A stretch of DNA of 64,000 bases, from assembly GCA_963771465.1 (NCBI GenBank), contig CAVYTU010000015.1:832001-896000 (forward strand), written 5' to 3'. Origin of the DNA: an uncultured delta proteobacterium. GTDB taxonomy: Bacteria > Desulfobacterota > Binatia > UBA9968. Shown here one piece after another: positions 1,210-17,936 of the stretch. The position numbers and the translations under genes are program-made. The notes under the pieces were generated by a model. The model had not been told where the DNA came from. It saw only the letters and a list, made by a program, of their open reading frames with translations, and did not search any database. The stretch's first letter is position 1. Every line of letters begins with the position of its first letter.

Positions 1210-1550
1210 GTTCTCCTCCTATTAGAGAATGTTATGGTCTTTGACCCTGAGAAATGAACTGCTAATGGCTACCGAACATGGGGCTAACTGCTAAACCGCT
1301 CGCTGATCGGATTTTCCTTTAGGATCTGTTCGCAAGGAGAGACTGACAGGGGCCTTCAAGCCTGATTCTGTCCTCTATCAGAAGGCCGTTTACTGATGAA
1401 GATGATAAACAGTAACCGCTCGCCTTGGTATTGTCAACCTGCATGCCAAAGAAATGTTCCTGGAGGCTGACGCCGCGAAATCGGCTTGCATCCCGTAGGG
1501 CGCCCACATAATAATGCGGCGGCAGTTACGGGTAGACGCTGGGAGGTGCG

Positions 1551-2531
1551 ATGAAAATAATTGCGATTGCCATTGGGATAGCTCTGAGCTGCATGCTGAA
1601 GTTTATCACGCCGGCCAATAGCTTGGCTCAGGAACGCGTGCGCATCGGCGTGCCTTTGTTCCCGACCGTTTCCTTTCCGGTTTTGATCGCGCAGGAAAAA
1701 GGTTTCTTTGAGCGAAATGGTTTGAAAGCGGAGATCATCCGCATCAACAGCGAGCCGACGACCTATCAAGCGCTAATCTCCGGCGACATCGATGCGACGT
1801 CGGGCGCGCCCACCGGGCTCGTGCAGTCAAACATTCAGGGCGTACCGGTGGTTTCGCTCGGCAGCTGGGACAACTTGGTTTCTTATACGATGGCGACTCG
1901 GGAGAAAGTCGATGATCTATCGCAACTCCGCGGTAAGAAAGTCGGCATCAATCGCCTCGGCGGCAAATCGTCGTTAGTTCTCCGTGTCATGCTCGAAGAC
2001 GCCGGTCTCAACACTTCGAAGGATATCACCTTGCTGCAACTCGGCGGCTCGCAGGAAAGACTGGCGGCGCTCATGCGCGGCGGCATCGACGCGGCGCCGG
2101 TGGATTTTGTCTTCGAGCCGAAAATGAAACAGCTAGGCTTTCACCTGGTCACCGCCAAAAAGACCGCCTTTATGAACGGCCCGATCACAGTCACCGTGGC
2201 CCAGTTGAAAGCGAACCGCGGCAAATGGCTTAAGTTCGTCAAAGCCTATCTGGAAGCCACCCATTACATGACGACCAACCGTGAAGGCGCCACGGACGTT
2301 CTCAAAAAAATCATCCAGACTGACGAGCGAGAAACCCTCGACCACGGTTACGAACAAATGCGCGCCCGCGCCACCGTCGATCTGGTGGCGCCCGAGCCGG
2401 CCATCGAAAATCTGGTGAGGATGATGACCTATGTCGACAAGCGGGCGGCCACCGTCGACCGCAGCAAGCTCGTCGATTACTCAATCCTGAAAGAACTTGC
2501 AGCGACCAGACAACTGCCGGTGAAAAAGTAG
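1551..2531 (+). CDS. ABC transporter substrate-binding protein, NMT1/THI5/SsuA-like
   Basis: Signal peptide; AQEKGFFERNGL, LRGKKVGI, RLAALMRGGIDA motifs. Confidence 0.85.
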   Translation: MKIIAIAIGIALSCMLKFITPANSLAQERVRIGVPLFPTVSFPVLIAQEKGFFERNGLKAEIIRINSEPTTYQALISGDIDATSGAPTGLVQSNIQGVPVVSLGSWDNLVSYTMATREKVDDLSQLRGKKVGINRLGGKSSLVLRVMLEDAGLNTSKDITLLQLGGSQERLAALMRGGIDAAPVDFVFEPKMKQLGFHLVTAKKTAFMNGPITVTVAQLKANRGKWLKFVKAYLEATHYMTTNREGATDVLKKIIQTDERETLDHGYEQMRARATVDLVAPEPAIENLVRMMTYVDKRAATVDRSKLVDYSILKELAATRQLPVKK

Positions 2532-13162: not shown

Positions 13163-13633
13163 TTAATCCCCTTCTTCCTCCCCGAGCATGGTGCCGCGGC
13201 AGCGCCGCGCGCCGCACAAACAGGCGTGGTCGCGCTTGGCCTTCTTGGTATGGCGCTCGCCGATTTGCAGATTGTAGTCGTAGGCGAGTTCCTCTCCCGG
13301 CTTGATGTCGCGGCGCGCTTCGATGAACACTCGATGATCTTCTTCTTCGATCTCGCAGTTGGGCGCGCAGGAGTGATTGATCCAGCGCGCCGAGTTGCCG
13401 CCGCGCGTGGCATCGATGACGAACCCGTCGTCGACGGAAAAGAGCATCGTATGGGAGGAATTCTCATGCAGCCGGCCAAAGCGCCGGTCGGCTTCTTTGT
13501 CGGTGATGAGCTTCCCTTTGTATTCAATAATCCTGGTGCCCTTTGGAATCCGCCGCAGGGCAAACACGCCGCGTCCATGGATCGGCGAGGTGCGCACGCC
13601 AATGCGGCGGCGTTTATTTTTGCTTACAGCCAT
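13163..13633 (-). CDS. SET domain protein-lysine N-methyltransferase with post-SET CxCx4C
   Basis: SPIHGRGVFA, ARWINHSCAPNC, GEELAYDY, CLCGARRC. Confidence 0.93.
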   Translation of the reverse strand: MAVSKNKRRRIGVRTSPIHGRGVFALRRIPKGTRIIEYKGKLITDKEADRRFGRLHENSSHTMLFSVDDGFVIDATRGGNSARWINHSCAPNCEIEEEDHRVFIEARRDIKPGEELAYDYNLQIGERHTKKAKRDHACLCGARRCRGTMLGEEEGD

Positions 13634-13672: not shown

Positions 13673-15106
13673 TTAACGATCGTCCTCCATCCCCTTGACG
13701 AACTGCATCATCCGCTCAGCCGGTGCCTTGTCTTGGTATTGGCCGAACAGCCGTTGGCGCATGCGGTCGACTTCGCCGCTCTGCAAGCGCTCGTATAATT
13801 GGCTGCGCTTGCCGAACGGCGTCATCACCATATCCGCGGCGATCGCCATCAGACGTAAATGGTCCTTGGTATTCGGCGCGCCGCCGCGAAAGTAGCGCTC
13901 GACAAATGGACCAAGCTCCGTGCTCTGCAGATCCGACGCGCCGCCGCTGAGCATCAATGTGCTCGTGAGCAAAGCTTCCATCGTCTGCTCGGCGCGGTCG
14001 GAAGCTTCGATGCTGTGGACGCGGTACGCCGCACTCAACAACGGCGCCCAGGTGCCGCCGCCGGCAGCGTACCCATTAGACTCACCGACTTGAATGCACG
14101 ACCGGAGAATCTCGATATCCTGAATCAAACTCGACAAAAGAATTTGCGACGGTAGGCTGGTGTTGCGCTTGGCGTATTGGGTCAGCAACTGAGCAACGCC
14201 CAAGAACGCTTCAAGCTTCGTCACTAACCGAAGCATGGTCGAATACTGCCCCCAGGTGTGAATGTACATGATTCCTGACAGCAGCTTGGGATCTTTGTAA
14301 ACGAACAGCCGTTCCCACGGCACCACGACGTCATCGAAGATCAGCGCCGCATCGACTTCGTCGAAGCGCGTCGTCAGCGGCTGGCGCTCGGGGTCAGCGT
14401 TCTCGGCGTAAAGATCGCGACAGAGAATTTTCAGACCCTTGGTGTTCATCGGAATGGCGAACGCCATAGCATAGTCAGCTTCATCCGGCTCCCGCGGCCG
14501 ATTGGGATAAACGATCACTTCGTCGGCGATCGGCGCCAAGGTCGCCAAAGTGCGCAGGCCGCGCACCACTGGGCCTTCTTTGGTTTCGCCGACGATGTGC
14601 AGAATCAAGTCGGGATCATCCTGCTTCCCTACGGGCCTCGTGCGGTCATAATATTGGTCGGTCAGCGCGTGGGTGAGACAAAGATCGTTGCGGCTGACGT
14701 AGCGATGATAGGCGCGCGCATTGTCGGCCCACTGTTCGTTGGTCTTTTCGATCACATGGGTCCAGTCGAGCAATCCGACGATCAACTCCGCGACGAATTC
14801 CGGATAGCGCCCCATCTGGCCAAACGTTTGTTGCGCCCAGAATTCGATATTGCGCCGCTTGAGCAGCAGCTCCTGATGATTTTTTGGCGGCAGGTAACTG
14901 TACGAGATACGCTCGCCGTCGTGCTCGCAGGTCATGATGTCGCGATACTCCGGGGTATGCTGCTTGTCGTACATGTCGGCGAGCGTCTTGATCGTGCCGG
15001 TAAAACCCGTGTGTGCGGTCACGTCGACGATGCGCTTGCCCGCATGCCAAACCTCCCGGCCATCGCGCAACGCCTTGATATAATCGGCCCCTCGTCTTAC
15101 CGCCAT
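13673..15106 (-). CDS. 4-hydroxyphenylacetate 3-hydroxylase (HpaB) family flavin-dependent oxygenase component
   Basis: GADYIKALRDGREVW, GQMGRYPE, LATLAPIADE, RFDEVDAALIFDDVVVPWERLF. Confidence 0.9.
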   Translation of the reverse strand: MAVRRGADYIKALRDGREVWHAGKRIVDVTAHTGFTGTIKTLADMYDKQHTPEYRDIMTCEHDGERISYSYLPPKNHQELLLKRRNIEFWAQQTFGQMGRYPEFVAELIVGLLDWTHVIEKTNEQWADNARAYHRYVSRNDLCLTHALTDQYYDRTRPVGKQDDPDLILHIVGETKEGPVVRGLRTLATLAPIADEVIVYPNRPREPDEADYAMAFAIPMNTKGLKILCRDLYAENADPERQPLTTRFDEVDAALIFDDVVVPWERLFVYKDPKLLSGIMYIHTWGQYSTMLRLVTKLEAFLGVAQLLTQYAKRNTSLPSQILLSSLIQDIEILRSCIQVGESNGYAAGGGTWAPLLSAAYRVHSIEASDRAEQTMEALLTSTLMLSGGASDLQSTELGPFVERYFRGGAPNTKDHLRLMAIAADMVMTPFGKRSQLYERLQSGEVDRMRQRLFGQYQDKAPAERMMQFVKGMEDDR

Positions 15107-15422
15107 GAAAAACGACCTCCAACCTTGTTGCTGCTTGTTAGAGCACGAAGATTTATAGCGTTAATCTTGCACCGCAAGCAAGCTTACGATGGAACGGTTG
15201 CGCGCAACATTGCTGGCGCCAGTGCCGAGAGTGTCGTTGTAAGGAATGACCCGCATGCACGCGTCAAATTAAGACGCGGCAAGGGTCAATACTCGAAGGA
15301 AGTTGAAAAGATATCGCGTCGATTTATCACGAGGCGACGCTCAGCTTGGAACGATTTCCCTTAGTTTGATTTGCATTCTTTGCGGTCAATTCTCCAATCC
15401 TCAGTTTATAACTGTCTCGATC

Positions 15423-15857
15423 TTAATTCTTCTTCCCCGGCTCGGCCTGATAGCCTTGGTCCTTCCATTTGCTCACCGGGCAAAATGTCGTGCTCTGAAA
15501 ACCCATCTCTTCTGCTAGCTTCGCAGCCTGCGAGCTTTGCGCTCCGGTGCCTCAGGTGAAAACGATATAGGTTTCCTTGGACATTTTCTTGAGATGGCCT
15601 TCAAGTTCTGCCAACGGAATATTGATCGCGCCGGGAATAGTTTCTTTTTCGAAACTGGCCGCAGCGCGCACGTCGATGATCAACATTTTGCCGGCATCGA
15701 GTCGTTTCTTTAATTCCTCGGCCGGTGTTTGCTTGGCGCCAACGGCCCATTTCGTCTGGGGATCGACCGGGTAGCGCGGTTGCGCCTGGGCGGCGAATGA
15801 GGGTTGAGCCCACAATATTAGTGCGGTCAGACTCGCGCCTGCGACAAATGATCTCAC
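15423..15857 (-). CDS. Secreted rhodanese-domain selenoprotein (Sec at TGA 15552-15554), 144 aa
   Basis: GTG start after AAAGGAG; signal peptide; IIDVR..IPGAINIP..IVFT-TGA-GTGAQSSQAAKLAEEMGF..WKDQGY continues in frame for 42 codons to TAA at 15423, completing the rhodanese fold. The TGA is at the catalytic Cys position. Confidence 0.85.
15517..15536 (-). promoter_or_regulatory. Putative bacterial SECIS hairpin for the rhodanese UGA
   Basis: AGCUCGC-AGGCU-GCGAAGCU starting 16 nt after UGA; G-containing apical loop. Confidence 0.7.
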
Positions 15858-15892
15858 AAATACTCCTTTCTCAATTTGACCAAGAAGCTTAC

Positions 15893-16414
15893 TCAATCCC
15901 GATCCGACATTTCAAACGCCAGCGTCGCGTAACGCATAAAAACGCCGCCGCGCGGTTCCGCCAGCGGGCCGTTAGCCACTAAGCAAGCAATCACATGCTT
16001 GGCGCCGGGCTGCGCTTTGGTGCTCACCTCTACTCTCTGTTGTGCGTTGATGCCGACGATCGTCCCTGCCGGCCGTTCGAGCTGGCCATCGACCCAAATC
16101 TCACCGTAGTTATCAACGTTGGTCTCGAACCATACGCGGTAATCGCGCAACGCCAGGCCATTCACCTGCTCGGGCAACTCGACGGTAATCCGATACCAAG
16201 CAAAGGTAAAACCCTTGGAAATACTTCTGCGAATATCGGCACACAGGTTCCATCCCGAATCATCGAAGTCAGCCAAACGGGGCGGCGCTGCCAATAGCTG
16301 TGCGGTGAGACCTTCGTTCGGCTGGCCGGGCACCAATCCGGGACCGATGCGCCACTGTCCTTTCACCTTTCGACAATCCTCCGCGCTATTCAAATCCAAC
16401 GCGACCCTCGGCAT
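15893..16414 (-). CDS. Hypothetical protein with a galactose-binding/GH2 N-terminal-like jelly-roll fold
   Basis: FDDSGW, FAWYRITVELP, VDNYGEIWVDG; start MPRVAL after AAGGAGG. The longer ORF N-terminus merely translates the palindromic repeat. Confidence 0.65.
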   Translation of the reverse strand: MPRVALDLNSAEDCRKVKGQWRIGPGLVPGQPNEGLTAQLLAAPPRLADFDDSGWNLCADIRRSISKGFTFAWYRITVELPEQVNGLALRDYRVWFETNVDNYGEIWVDGQLERPAGTIVGINAQQRVEVSTKAQPGAKHVIACLVANGPLAEPRGGVFMRYATLAFEMSDRD

Positions 16415-16460
16415 GGATGCCTCCTTAGACCCAATTTTTGCGGCAATGCGAAAATTTTTT

Positions 16461-16542
16461 TCACCACGAAGTTCACGAAGGACACGAAGGCTTCGGATGA
16501 CCAATACTCCGAACTTCGTGCTCTTCGTGTGCTTCGTGGTGA
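16461..16542. repeat. Intergenic nested palindrome of CACGAAG/CTTCGTG units
   Basis: TCACCACGAAGTTCACGAAGGACACGAAG ... CTTCGTGCTCTTCGTGTGCTTCGTGGTGA. Confidence 0.8.
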
Positions 16543-16583
16543 TTACGATCTTTGCCTTTTTGCTTGCTGCTATGCCGCGCTCG

Positions 16584-17936
16584 TTAACCTCGAAGAATCT
16601 CCGTCAGCGACCTTACGTTCTCTACTTTTTCCAAGCCTTCGATCTGCGCCAACGCGCGCTCAGCAGCGTCAGCGCTCAAAGTTTCGCGCGCGCACTGGGT
16701 AAACTTACCTCTCAGCTCGTCTTCCGACATGGGAAACTCCGAGCTGCCCCTGGAATGCTGCGCTTCGCGAGTAAGCACCTTGCCGTCCTTCAAGCGCACC
16801 GTGACGCGGCACGGGCGTCCGCCGGGGTCGGTTTTTCTCAGATTATTATCGAGATTCATTTGCACTCTTTCGGCCAACTTCAAAACATTCCGGTCACGCA
16901 CGGCGGCGTCGGTGAATGCATGCAACGACACCTCGCCGTCGATTAGCGCCCGCGCCACCAAGTAGGGCATGCAGAATTTCCCCTGGATGCTTGTTTGCGG
17001 CACTTTGAAAACGATTCGCTCGAAGGTGTGCTTGACGACATCGACGTCGACGCGCTCGACCATCTCCGGCGTCAAGCCGTTTTTAGCTCTGAATTCCAAG
17101 ATGGAATCGATCACCTGGTGGGTAAGTCCACCGCAAGGATAAGGCTTGATACGGATGCCGTCGCTGAGCAAGGCATACGATTGGCCCAACTCTTCGATCG
17201 GCTTCTCGTCGATGGGCGTACCTTGATGCAAAACTTTGTAAAAGCCAAAGCCTGATTCGATCGCTTTGCCGTTGGCGGTGTATCCGCCGGCCGCGAGCTT
17301 GGCGGCGAGCACGCCGTTGCGCGCGCCGAGACCGGCATGCAACGGTTTGGTCATGGTGCCAAAGTTTGCGACGATGCCGCCGGCCATCGATGCCGACATG
17401 CCGAGCGCCATCTCAACCTGCGATGCGTTGAGACCGAGCAATTTCGCGCATGCGGCCGCGGCGCCAAAAACACCTACCGTGCTCGGCGCGTGCCAACCGT
17501 CATGTTCGCTGTCGCGCAGGGAATGCACGATCTTAGCCGTAACCTCGTAACCGGCGGCGTAGGCTTCGATAATCTGCCGGCCGCTGGCGCCGAGCGCTTC
17601 ACCCAGAGCAAAAGTCGCCGGAATGATCGGCGAGGTCGGCTGGCCCATCAATGTGAAGCTGTGATCGAAATCCATCGCGTGGGCCGCCGTGCCATTGGCC
17701 AGCGCGGCGTTGAGCGCGGAAGATTTGAATCCTTGACCGATGACCGTGGTTTCTTCCTTAGCCTGTTCCAGGCGGGCAATCTCGGCGCAAATCTTTGCGT
17801 CCTCTTCTTTGCTGCCGGCAAGGGCCACGCCGAGGCAATCGCGCACCGCTACTTTGGCCGTCTCAATTGCCTTTGGCGGTAGGTTTTCATACTTCGCACT
17901 AACAACGAATTGAGCGATCTTTGCAGTTACGTCCAT
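16584..17936 (-). CDS. MmgE/PrpD family protein
   Basis: DCLGVALAGS, NGTAAHAMDFDH, GTMTKPLHAG, IKPYPC. Confidence 0.92.
   Translation of the reverse strand: MDVTAKIAQFVVSAKYENLPPKAIETAKVAVRDCLGVALAGSKEEDAKICAEIARLEQAKEETTVIGQGFKSSALNAALANGTAAHAMDFDHSFTLMGQPTSPIIPATFALGEALGASGRQIIEAYAAGYEVTAKIVHSLRDSEHDGWHAPSTVGVFGAAAACAKLLGLNASQVEMALGMSASMAGGIVANFGTMTKPLHAGLGARNGVLAAKLAAGGYTANGKAIESGFGFYKVLHQGTPIDEKPIEELGQSYALLSDGIRIKPYPCGGLTHQVIDSILEFRAKNGLTPEMVERVDVDVVKHTFERIVFKVPQTSIQGKFCMPYLVARALIDGEVSLHAFTDAAVRDRNVLKLAERVQMNLDNNLRKTDPGGRPCRVTVRLKDGKVLTREAQHSRGSSEFPMSEDELRGKFTQCARETLSADAAERALAQIEGLEKVENVRSLTEILRG

Follow-up and report, generated by a model that had tools for sequence, protein, structure and literature searches.

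Rhodanese-related sulfurtransferases that contain selenocysteine (Sec) appear in published lists from the Sargasso Sea survey onwards (PMC1088965), Sec-rhodaneses are abundant in Olavius symbionts (PMC1976440), and reviews of 2022 (PMC9312934) and 2026 (PMC13188914) tabulate several forms of them. Here we describe a further Sec-rhodanese gene, of 144 codons with an in-frame UGA at codon 102, from a window of 64,000 nucleotides on contig CAVYTU010000015.1 (positions 832,001 to 896,000) of an uncultured delta proteobacterium (assembly GCA_963771465.1; Binatia in the GTDB lineage); "the window" always means this whole stretch, and coordinates refer to it. A first-pass annotation, made from the letters of the window alone, had read the gene as a secreted seleno-rhodanese on the premise that Sec-containing rhodaneses exist in bacteria, a premise borne out by the UxxG forms that the two reviews tabulate (PMC13188914, PMC9312934).

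These UxxG forms ("form 2" and "form 4", rhodanese-related sulfurtransferase) are defined, in the review sections that list them, by domain and motif only (PMC13188914, PMC9312934). Our locus has the same PF00581 domain (COG0607/PspE-like in the reviews' scheme) and Sec at the catalytic position, here within U-G-T-G, and by that domain and motif definition alone its predicted product belongs with them. The term "signal peptide" does not occur in the main text of either review (PMC9312934, PMC13188914), and a second conserved Cys is not described in the review texts searched. Two further rhodanese-domain selenoprotein families have curated NCBIfam models: NF041203 (rhodanese_LYCAU (seleno)protein), with the motif CxU, and NF045694 (TsoB), with the motif UxxxxU (PMC13188914). 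The locus scores 34.4 against a cut-off of 115 for the former, and its motif is UxxG; for the latter it scores 17 against 805, TsoB being a rhodanese/DsbD fusion-like selenoprotein with two Sec, whereas the locus encodes a single domain with one.

Among Cys-containing enzymes, the points of comparison are PspE, the thiosulfate sulfurtransferase of E. coli (2jtq), and Sud (1qxn), both of them periplasmic and, like our protein, small single-domain rhodaneses. Of the curated NCBIfam models, that of PspE matches the seleno-rhodanese best, and PspE is also a clear match in the PDB sequence search (3.8e-16), though the scores lie below the cut-offs of both PspE models (NF007627, 44.4 against 102; TIGR02981, 40 against 126.3). 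PspE and Sud use Cys where the locus has Sec, and they are without the conserved N-terminal extension PRYPVDPxTxWAxGAK. Judged by sequence, the protein would be PspE-like in its working and is not a member of the PspE family.

Selenoproteins outside the cytoplasm also have precedents. MccSep of Geobacter sulfurreducens is a purified periplasmic multihaem selenoprotein with a cleaved signal peptide, whose Sec and Cys act together on polysulfide (10.1101/2025.11.18.688581); it is a precedent for export and for selenium-sulfur chemistry outside the cytoplasm, with an unrelated fold and haem dependence, and we claim no homology. DsbA-like and DsbG-like selenoproteins were listed in 2005 (PMC1088965), and selenoproteins belonging to an ABC-transport system, with partner proteins that carry lipoprotein signal peptides, are described in a preprint of 2022. 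Both the enzyme type and exported selenoproteins are thus already known, and the locus is a well-supported further Sec-rhodanese, with predicted export and a Cys in an F-C-P motif as the traits of its subfamily.

A UGA codon at the catalytic position of a single-domain rhodanese

The called open reading frame (ORF) stops at ...YIVFT, and the first-pass annotation had pointed out that the frame then stays open for 42 more codons; all of its coordinates and residue numbers proved correct. Read on the minus strand, the coding sequence starts with GTG (15857-15855) behind a Shine-Dalgarno-like motif, both read directly in the sequence, continues through ...YIVFT to the TGA of codon 102, and proceeds through 42 open codons (GTGAQSSQ...EPGKKN) to a TAA stop at 15425-15423 (Table 1). 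In orthologues the start codon is an ATG, located identically and preceded by a GGAG motif. By our own arithmetic, 42 codons would stay open by chance with a probability of about 0.13, so the open frame alone is weak evidence; what gives it weight is that orthologues keep the TGA at the same codon, not the length of the frame.

The read-through product is a single-domain rhodanese of 144 residues with the TGA at the position of the catalytic Cys. This placement, proposed from the start, agrees with a profile alignment that sets residue 102 against the catalytic Cys of 1yt8, 6mxv and 3tp9. The Pfam Rhodanese match (PF00581) is strong (E=4.1e-18; 66.1 bits against a cut-off of 22.2), and PDB sequence matches, in which residue 102 falls on the catalytic Cys, include PspE, GlpE and Sud. 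An AlphaFold2 model, computed from a 34-row alignment, has a mean predicted local distance difference test score (pLDDT) of 89.2, with 97-98 over nearly all of the mature domain, and places a strand (residues 98-101) directly before Sec102. The Pfam match spans the TGA. The codons beyond it give a helix, a strand and a helix (Table 1), and read-through does complete the fold, as had been claimed. The top Foldseek matches of the model are all rhodanese domains (3tp9, 6mxv, 3ilm and human TSTD1, with GlpE lower), at a root-mean-square deviation of 1.7-2.1 A for the top-ranked ones. The loop that begins with Sec102, U-G-T-G-A-Q-S, has a length of six residues, which we take to be that of the sulfurtransferase type of rhodanese.

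The UGA codon is conserved and the codons beyond it are under selection

A search with the read-through protein against 61 related genomes (its own included) found 14 orthologous genes at 64-99% identity; by local alignment 13 of these carry one in-frame TGA, always at the same codon, and the exception, from another genus, has CGA. Two of the 61, the unpublished genomes G005 and G035, have no orthologue, and no alignment or count given here draws on their loci. A scan of GTDB species representatives, which shares genomes with the first set and is not independent of it, yielded 23 orthologous loci, with TGA at codon 102 in 21, TGC in one and CGA in one. The hosts of these loci are labelled as uncultured delta proteobacterium, Candidatus Binatia and Thermodesulfobacteriota metagenome-assembled genomes (MAGs), as Vicinamibacterales/Vicinamibacteria (Acidobacteriota) and, in one case, as a Candidatus Acidiferrales MAG. 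Four orthologues also terminate in TGA, and TGA is therefore not reassigned genome-wide.

The protein database search matched 357 of 391 candidates. Among the 120 relatives listed, 105 are 88-123 residues long and reach no further than the first 59-70% of the query; the one short relative inspected (P0020) ends exactly at ...IVFT. Sixteen database homologues could be aligned at residue 102, comprising the 15 longer proteins among those listed, of which 13 (full-length) have Cys and two have Trp, and one truncated sequence. One of the two with Trp (P0001) has Trp at its terminal stop as well as at residue 102, a pattern that points to a gene caller having translated TGA as Trp in both of these entries. 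Whether homologues have Cys or TGA at residue 102, a check put forward by the first-pass annotation, is thus answered by both states occurring.

Selection was assessed as the ratio of nonsynonymous to synonymous divergence (pN/pS) in 17 TGA-bearing sequences, namely the window and 16 loci, leaving out L056 (extra stop), L058 (CGA), L065 (Cys), L067 (frameshift) and the partial loci L069, L071 and L072. pN/pS is 0.27 past the TGA (residues 103-107 and 115-144), against 0.34 before it (mature residues 27-101), so that the codons beyond the TGA are translated and constrained. The conservation past the TGA that the first-pass annotation had suggested examining is therefore seen both in this ratio and in the homologue alignment.

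No difference is listed at 15552-15554 in contigs that span this codon, which come from one soil DNA run, possibly the source sample, and from two metatranscriptome libraries; coverage of the gene by RNA-library contigs does not prove transcription. These contigs show no departure from TGA toward TGC or TGT, the changes that the first-pass annotation had named, for raw reads, as refuting its reading, and sequencing or assembly error is therefore excluded. The stretch is present in soil, rhizosphere and freshwater-sediment metagenome runs from 18 studies. Together with the hairpin and the machinery described below, these results support the interpretation of the UGA at codon 102 as a Sec codon in a real gene that has been called in truncated form, and we consider it very likely, as judged by comparative sequence evidence, that the gene encodes a genuine Sec-decoded rhodanese.

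A conserved hairpin downstream of the UGA codon

A hairpin of 20 nucleotides that resembles a selenocysteine insertion sequence (SECIS) begins at the 16th base after the UGA, the spacing given in the first-pass annotation. Of the 23 loci, 20 share this 20-mer without any change. At codons 109-113 a single codon is used in all 17 TGA sequences, compared with 1 of 86 degenerate columns outside codons 108-114, and synonymous divergence (pS) falls to 0.15 within the hairpin against 0.65-0.77 elsewhere. Two Vicinamibacterales loci alter both flanks (Ser AGC to TCT; Leu to Ile) in a way that yields a perfect stem, and in one locus of this order (L068) the 45-nucleotide fold reaches -18.7 kcal/mol (z = -2.46). 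The single Cys-form locus has 5 synonymous changes in the seven hairpin codons and has lost the stem; the synonymous sites are frozen only in TGA forms. RNAalifold returned a consensus fold of the hairpin. Folding energy was dropped as SECIS evidence in favour of conservation, the single-sequence folds of 81, 45 and 20 nucleotides not being significant relative to shuffles; what speaks for a SECIS is the way conservation goes with the TGA, rather than the energy of the fold.

A related strain in a metatranscriptome library (run X15, record 10) differs at window 15539-15542 by an inserted base and a deleted base, separated by three bases, which together keep the reading frame. Both changes fall in codons 106-107, a variable part of the sequence that lies between UGA and hairpin, and the hairpin itself is unaffected.

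Selenocysteine machinery

The genome of the organism (6.9 Mb in 19 contigs, 99.4% complete) contains a tRNA-Sec (76.7 bits against a cut-off of 47; anticodon tca in ARAGORN), selA (536.9 bits, above its curated cut-off), selB (358.6 bits against 242) and selD (376.3 bits, above its curated cut-off), with selA, selB and selD grouped on contig 14. All four genes for which the first-pass annotation had recommended a search (selA, selB, selC and selD) are thus present in a genome that is nearly complete. The selD gene (contig 14, 200711-201637; L019) has an in-frame TGA of its own, at locus base 1531 near the N-terminus (...AAG-U-AAKLGP...), and a hairpin starts 25 nucleotides past it, with a clean stem of 8 base pairs and a 3-nucleotide loop beginning with G. 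We counted the likeness between the two hairpins (8 pairs and a 3-nucleotide loop starting with G) as support for the rhodanese SECIS.

In other genomes, the state of the machinery was considered as a reason for the exceptional loci and did not account for them. Loss of the Sec trait does not explain the Cys of the Cys-form locus (L065), since selB and tRNA-Sec persist in its genome; the Arg-form genome (L058) has selB and a tRNA-Sec match of 46.6 bits, just below the cut-off; and in a third genome (L054) tRNA-Sec was found with selB below cut-off.

Predicted export signal

A Sec-pathway signal peptide is predicted at residues 1-22, and by inspection the same leader layout recurs in all 10 complete N-termini listed, where the mature protein then begins with the conserved (A/Q)QQPRYPVDP. 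Evolution is quicker in the leader than in the mature part (pN/pS 0.63 against 0.27-0.34), and the AlphaFold2 model gives the leader a pLDDT of 54-58. Of what the first-pass annotation had said here, the signal peptide itself is likely, given its conserved layout and fast-evolving leader; its description of an exported selenoprotein as unusual does not, given the precedents cited above. We consider it likely from these sequence features that the protein is exported.

The leaders of the Cys homologues are built differently. Nine of them (P0013, P0019, P0023-P0027, P0029 and P0033) have a longer leader that includes a twin-arginine-like stretch (...Y-R-R-T-I-L...), unlike the short Lys/Arg-type leader of the Sec forms, and the two leader types may reflect different export routes for the Sec and Cys forms.

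Cys126 and the active site

The sole Cys of the protein, Cys126, lies in the post-UGA segment. F125, C126 and P127 are nearly invariant in Sec and Cys forms alike, with Cys126 present in at least 90% of homologue rows and retained in a TGA-bearing homologue of 42% identity from another family of the order (L035). Counted back from the invariant Trp131, it corresponds to the first of the two Gly in the GG motif of solved rhodaneses; the claim that a lone Cys replaces this motif agrees both with the count from Trp131 and with the GG of the solved structures, where GG is shown only in solved rhodaneses other than PspE, whose alignment stops before the region.

In the AlphaFold2 model, Sec102 and Cys126 each directly follow a strand (98-101 and 123-125, respectively). 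We take these strands to be neighbours in the rhodanese topology, which would place the two residues close together; a literature search on the strand order gave no confirmation. The proposal of the first-pass annotation that this Cys could be a resolving residue is in keeping with the conserved F-C-P. We hold it possible, our judgement leaning against it, that Cys126 is a redox partner of Sec102, and regard as rather unlikely the stronger proposal that the two would form a catalytic selenenylsulfide pair inside the rhodanese fold.

Gene neighbourhood and other rhodanese genes

The features of the locus are collected in Table 1. Upstream of the gene are an ORF without a Pfam match and then an MmgE/PrpD gene, and downstream are an HpaB-type monooxygenase gene and a SET-domain gene. 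The gene looks like a stand-alone unit, and its context gives no clue to the substrate. A promoter and terminator scan of 15050-16650 found nothing. The adjoining upstream ORF (15893-16504, minus strand) has 203 residues here and 173 in relatives, ends 36 nucleotides before the rhodanese start, and is 81-91% identical in the six closest loci. The SET-domain gene (13163-13633, minus strand) encodes a bacterial SET-domain protein of 156 residues (PF00856, E=5.6e-28), with 87-91% identity in four close relatives.

Table 1 Features of the seleno-rhodanese locus (window coordinates)
Feature	Position	Strand	Details
Seleno-rhodanese coding sequence	15423..15857	minus	144 codons and TAA stop; GTG start at 15857
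Shine-Dalgarno-like AAGGAG	15863..15868	minus	5 nt before GTG; GGAG-type motifs at the same place in orthologues
Predicted Sec-type signal peptide, residues 1-22	15792..15857	minus	Basic residue 2, hydrophobic core, S-F-A before predicted cut
Rhodanese homology domain PF00581, residues 46-122	15492..15722	minus	Spans the TGA
UGA (Sec) codon, residue 102	15552..15554	minus	First residue of active-site loop U-G-T-G-A-Q-S; aligns with catalytic Cys
42 post-UGA codons, residues 103-144	15426..15551	minus	Loop remainder, helix 106-117, strand 123-125, helix 128-133
SECIS-like hairpin AGCTCGCAGGCTGCGAAGCT	15517..15536	minus	8 pairs, one bulged A, GGC loop; overlaps codons 108-114
Cys126 codon, F-C-P motif	15480..15482	minus	At first Gly of usual GG motif

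Other rhodanese genes with in-frame TGA codons were also seen in relatives. One of them (L046, G034:C149; locus 1492-1938, minus strand) is an additional, distinct TGA-containing rhodanese, whose N-terminus resembles a signal and whose catalytic TGA is followed by A-C (...VVFY-U-A-C-P-H-H...); its best NCBIfam match is NF041203, at 50.4 bits and below the cut-off of 115. In other relatives, the search of the 61 genomes listed about 25 further weak matches that each contain one in-frame TGA. No in-frame TGA is present in the other matches listed for the organism's own genome, and five rhodanese-like matches without internal stops lie on one strand within 17 kb of contig 19 (about 118254-135058), a group that may be a sulfur-metabolism cluster.

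Discussion

We propose that the locus encodes a PspE-like single-domain rhodanese of 144 residues with a Sec-pathway signal peptide, which would most likely be periplasmic. The UGA at codon 102 would be decoded as Sec by the organism's own SelA, SelB, SelD and tRNA-Sec, directed by the short hairpin within the coding sequence that starts 16 nucleotides past the UGA. Sec102 would replace the nucleophilic Cys at the start of a six-residue loop of sulfurtransferase type, and its selenolate would accept sulfane sulfur (or selenium) as an Se-S(H) adduct and then hand it on. Cys126, at the end of the neighbouring strand, is probably beside Sec102; it may serve to resolve this adduct by forming a selenenylsulfide. 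Taken as a whole, an exported PspE-like Sec-rhodanese whose UGA is decoded via a hairpin within its own coding sequence is in our judgement a very likely explanation. It is carried by the gene structure, by the pairing of Sec with Cys among homologues, by selection acting both past the UGA and within the hairpin, by the Sec machinery of the genome and by the rhodanese fold; export, chemistry and the role of Cys126 are what we infer.

Several observations weigh against this explanation, the largest group concerning the hairpin. Alone it folds at -7.7 kcal/mol (z = -1.07), and 31 of 200 shuffles fold as well; folds of its 45- and 81-nucleotide contexts do not surpass those of shuffles (z = +0.59 and +0.55, respectively), and at minimum energy these contexts pick other pairings. 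RNAalifold found zero pairs with a compensatory change on both sides, the acidobacterial variant retains pairing only via a register shift, and an Rfam scan of 15400-15620 with E up to 10 gave one chance match to a long noncoding RNA and no SECIS family. At the level of the protein, no curated NCBIfam model reaches its cut-off, those for PspE, NF041203 and TsoB all scoring below. The neighbourhood has no conserved functional partner, with a gene order common to only the 6 closest loci and different in distant orthologues, and the search of 30 other genomes from the genus, many of which are incomplete, yielded the orthologue in only 12. Three orthologues look damaged: one has CGA (Arg) at the TGA site with its hairpin intact (L058, = L029, G031/G062), one has an extra TAA five codons upstream of the TGA (L056, = L025), and one has a one-base insertion just past the TGA that shifts the frame (L067). 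These are either MAG consensus errors or decay in some lineages, which are indistinguishable here; the intact hairpin of the CGA locus suggests a recent change or an assembly error.

The same data bear on how the UGA itself is read. If it were a true stop, the product would be an inactive rhodanese fragment of 101 residues, or a pseudogene, and the frame beyond it would be open by chance, which has the appeal of matching both the short lengths and partial query coverage of 105 of the 120 listed relatives and the chance estimate for 42 open codons. This reading is already contradicted by the Cys homologues, the conservation of the TGA, the frozen hairpin codons and the purifying selection downstream, as well as by conservation across two phyla (hosts as labelled); moreover, the truncated product would be without the whole active-site loop, and the downstream codons give the helix, strand and helix that the fold needs. 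We find it barely credible. It is very improbable, too, that a standard tRNA (Trp, Cys or Arg) reads the UGA to give a full-length protein without selenium: the Arg codon of the CGA orthologue, with its intact hairpin, is what such a reading can draw on, set against a full set of Sec machinery in a genome whose selD itself uses UGA, a hairpin frozen only in TGA forms that near-cognate reading would not need, and a site that is the catalytic Cys of Cys-containing homologues, the classic signature of a selenoprotein.

Alternatives to the rest of our explanation concern the leader and Cys126. An uncleaved membrane anchor, or a hydrophobic stretch that is no export signal, would leave the enzyme membrane-tethered or cytoplasmic, consistent with the lack of defined structure at residues 1-22 in the AlphaFold2 model; the basic, hydrophobic and small-x-small layout in all ten N-termini, the highly conserved mature start behind it (QQPRYPVDP...) and the rapid evolution of the leader, as in cleaved leaders, make this improbable. 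By contrast, it is almost an even call whether the protein is a genuine exported Sec-rhodanese in which Cys126 is structural or binds substrate, and thus a plain carrier of sulfane sulfur (or selenium) like PspE or Sud, with a single catalytic chalcogen. Solved single-domain rhodaneses use one catalytic Cys, the nearest curated model is PspE, and the F-C-P motif is equally conserved in Cys forms, as a purely structural replacement of GG would be; on the other hand, Cys126 directly follows its strand just as Sec102 does, and it is kept in the 42%-identical homologue even though its neighbours differ there, at a position where ordinary rhodaneses have GG.

The locus does not change what is known of Sec decoding or of rhodaneses as such. 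It adds a soil lineage to the known Sec-rhodaneses, comprising Binatia-like "delta proteobacterium" MAGs and Vicinamibacterales (as labelled), and it reveals a family that routine annotation truncates and that is stored mostly as fragments without the active site. Its compact SECIS comes with a natural control—frozen in TGA forms, remodelled in some with its pairing retained, and scrambled in the Cys form—which makes it useful for training SECIS detectors. The locus also offers a candidate for a two-chalcogen active site in a small, putatively exported enzyme. If the pairing of Sec102 with Cys126 were real, a periplasmic sulfur carrier would become a self-resolving selenium-sulfur redox enzyme, serving for example in the release of sulfide from thiosulfate or polysulfide, or in the handling of selenium outside the cytoplasm. 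It would also be common among the Binatia-like and Acidobacteriota bacteria of soil, having gone unannotated since gene callers cut it at 101 residues.

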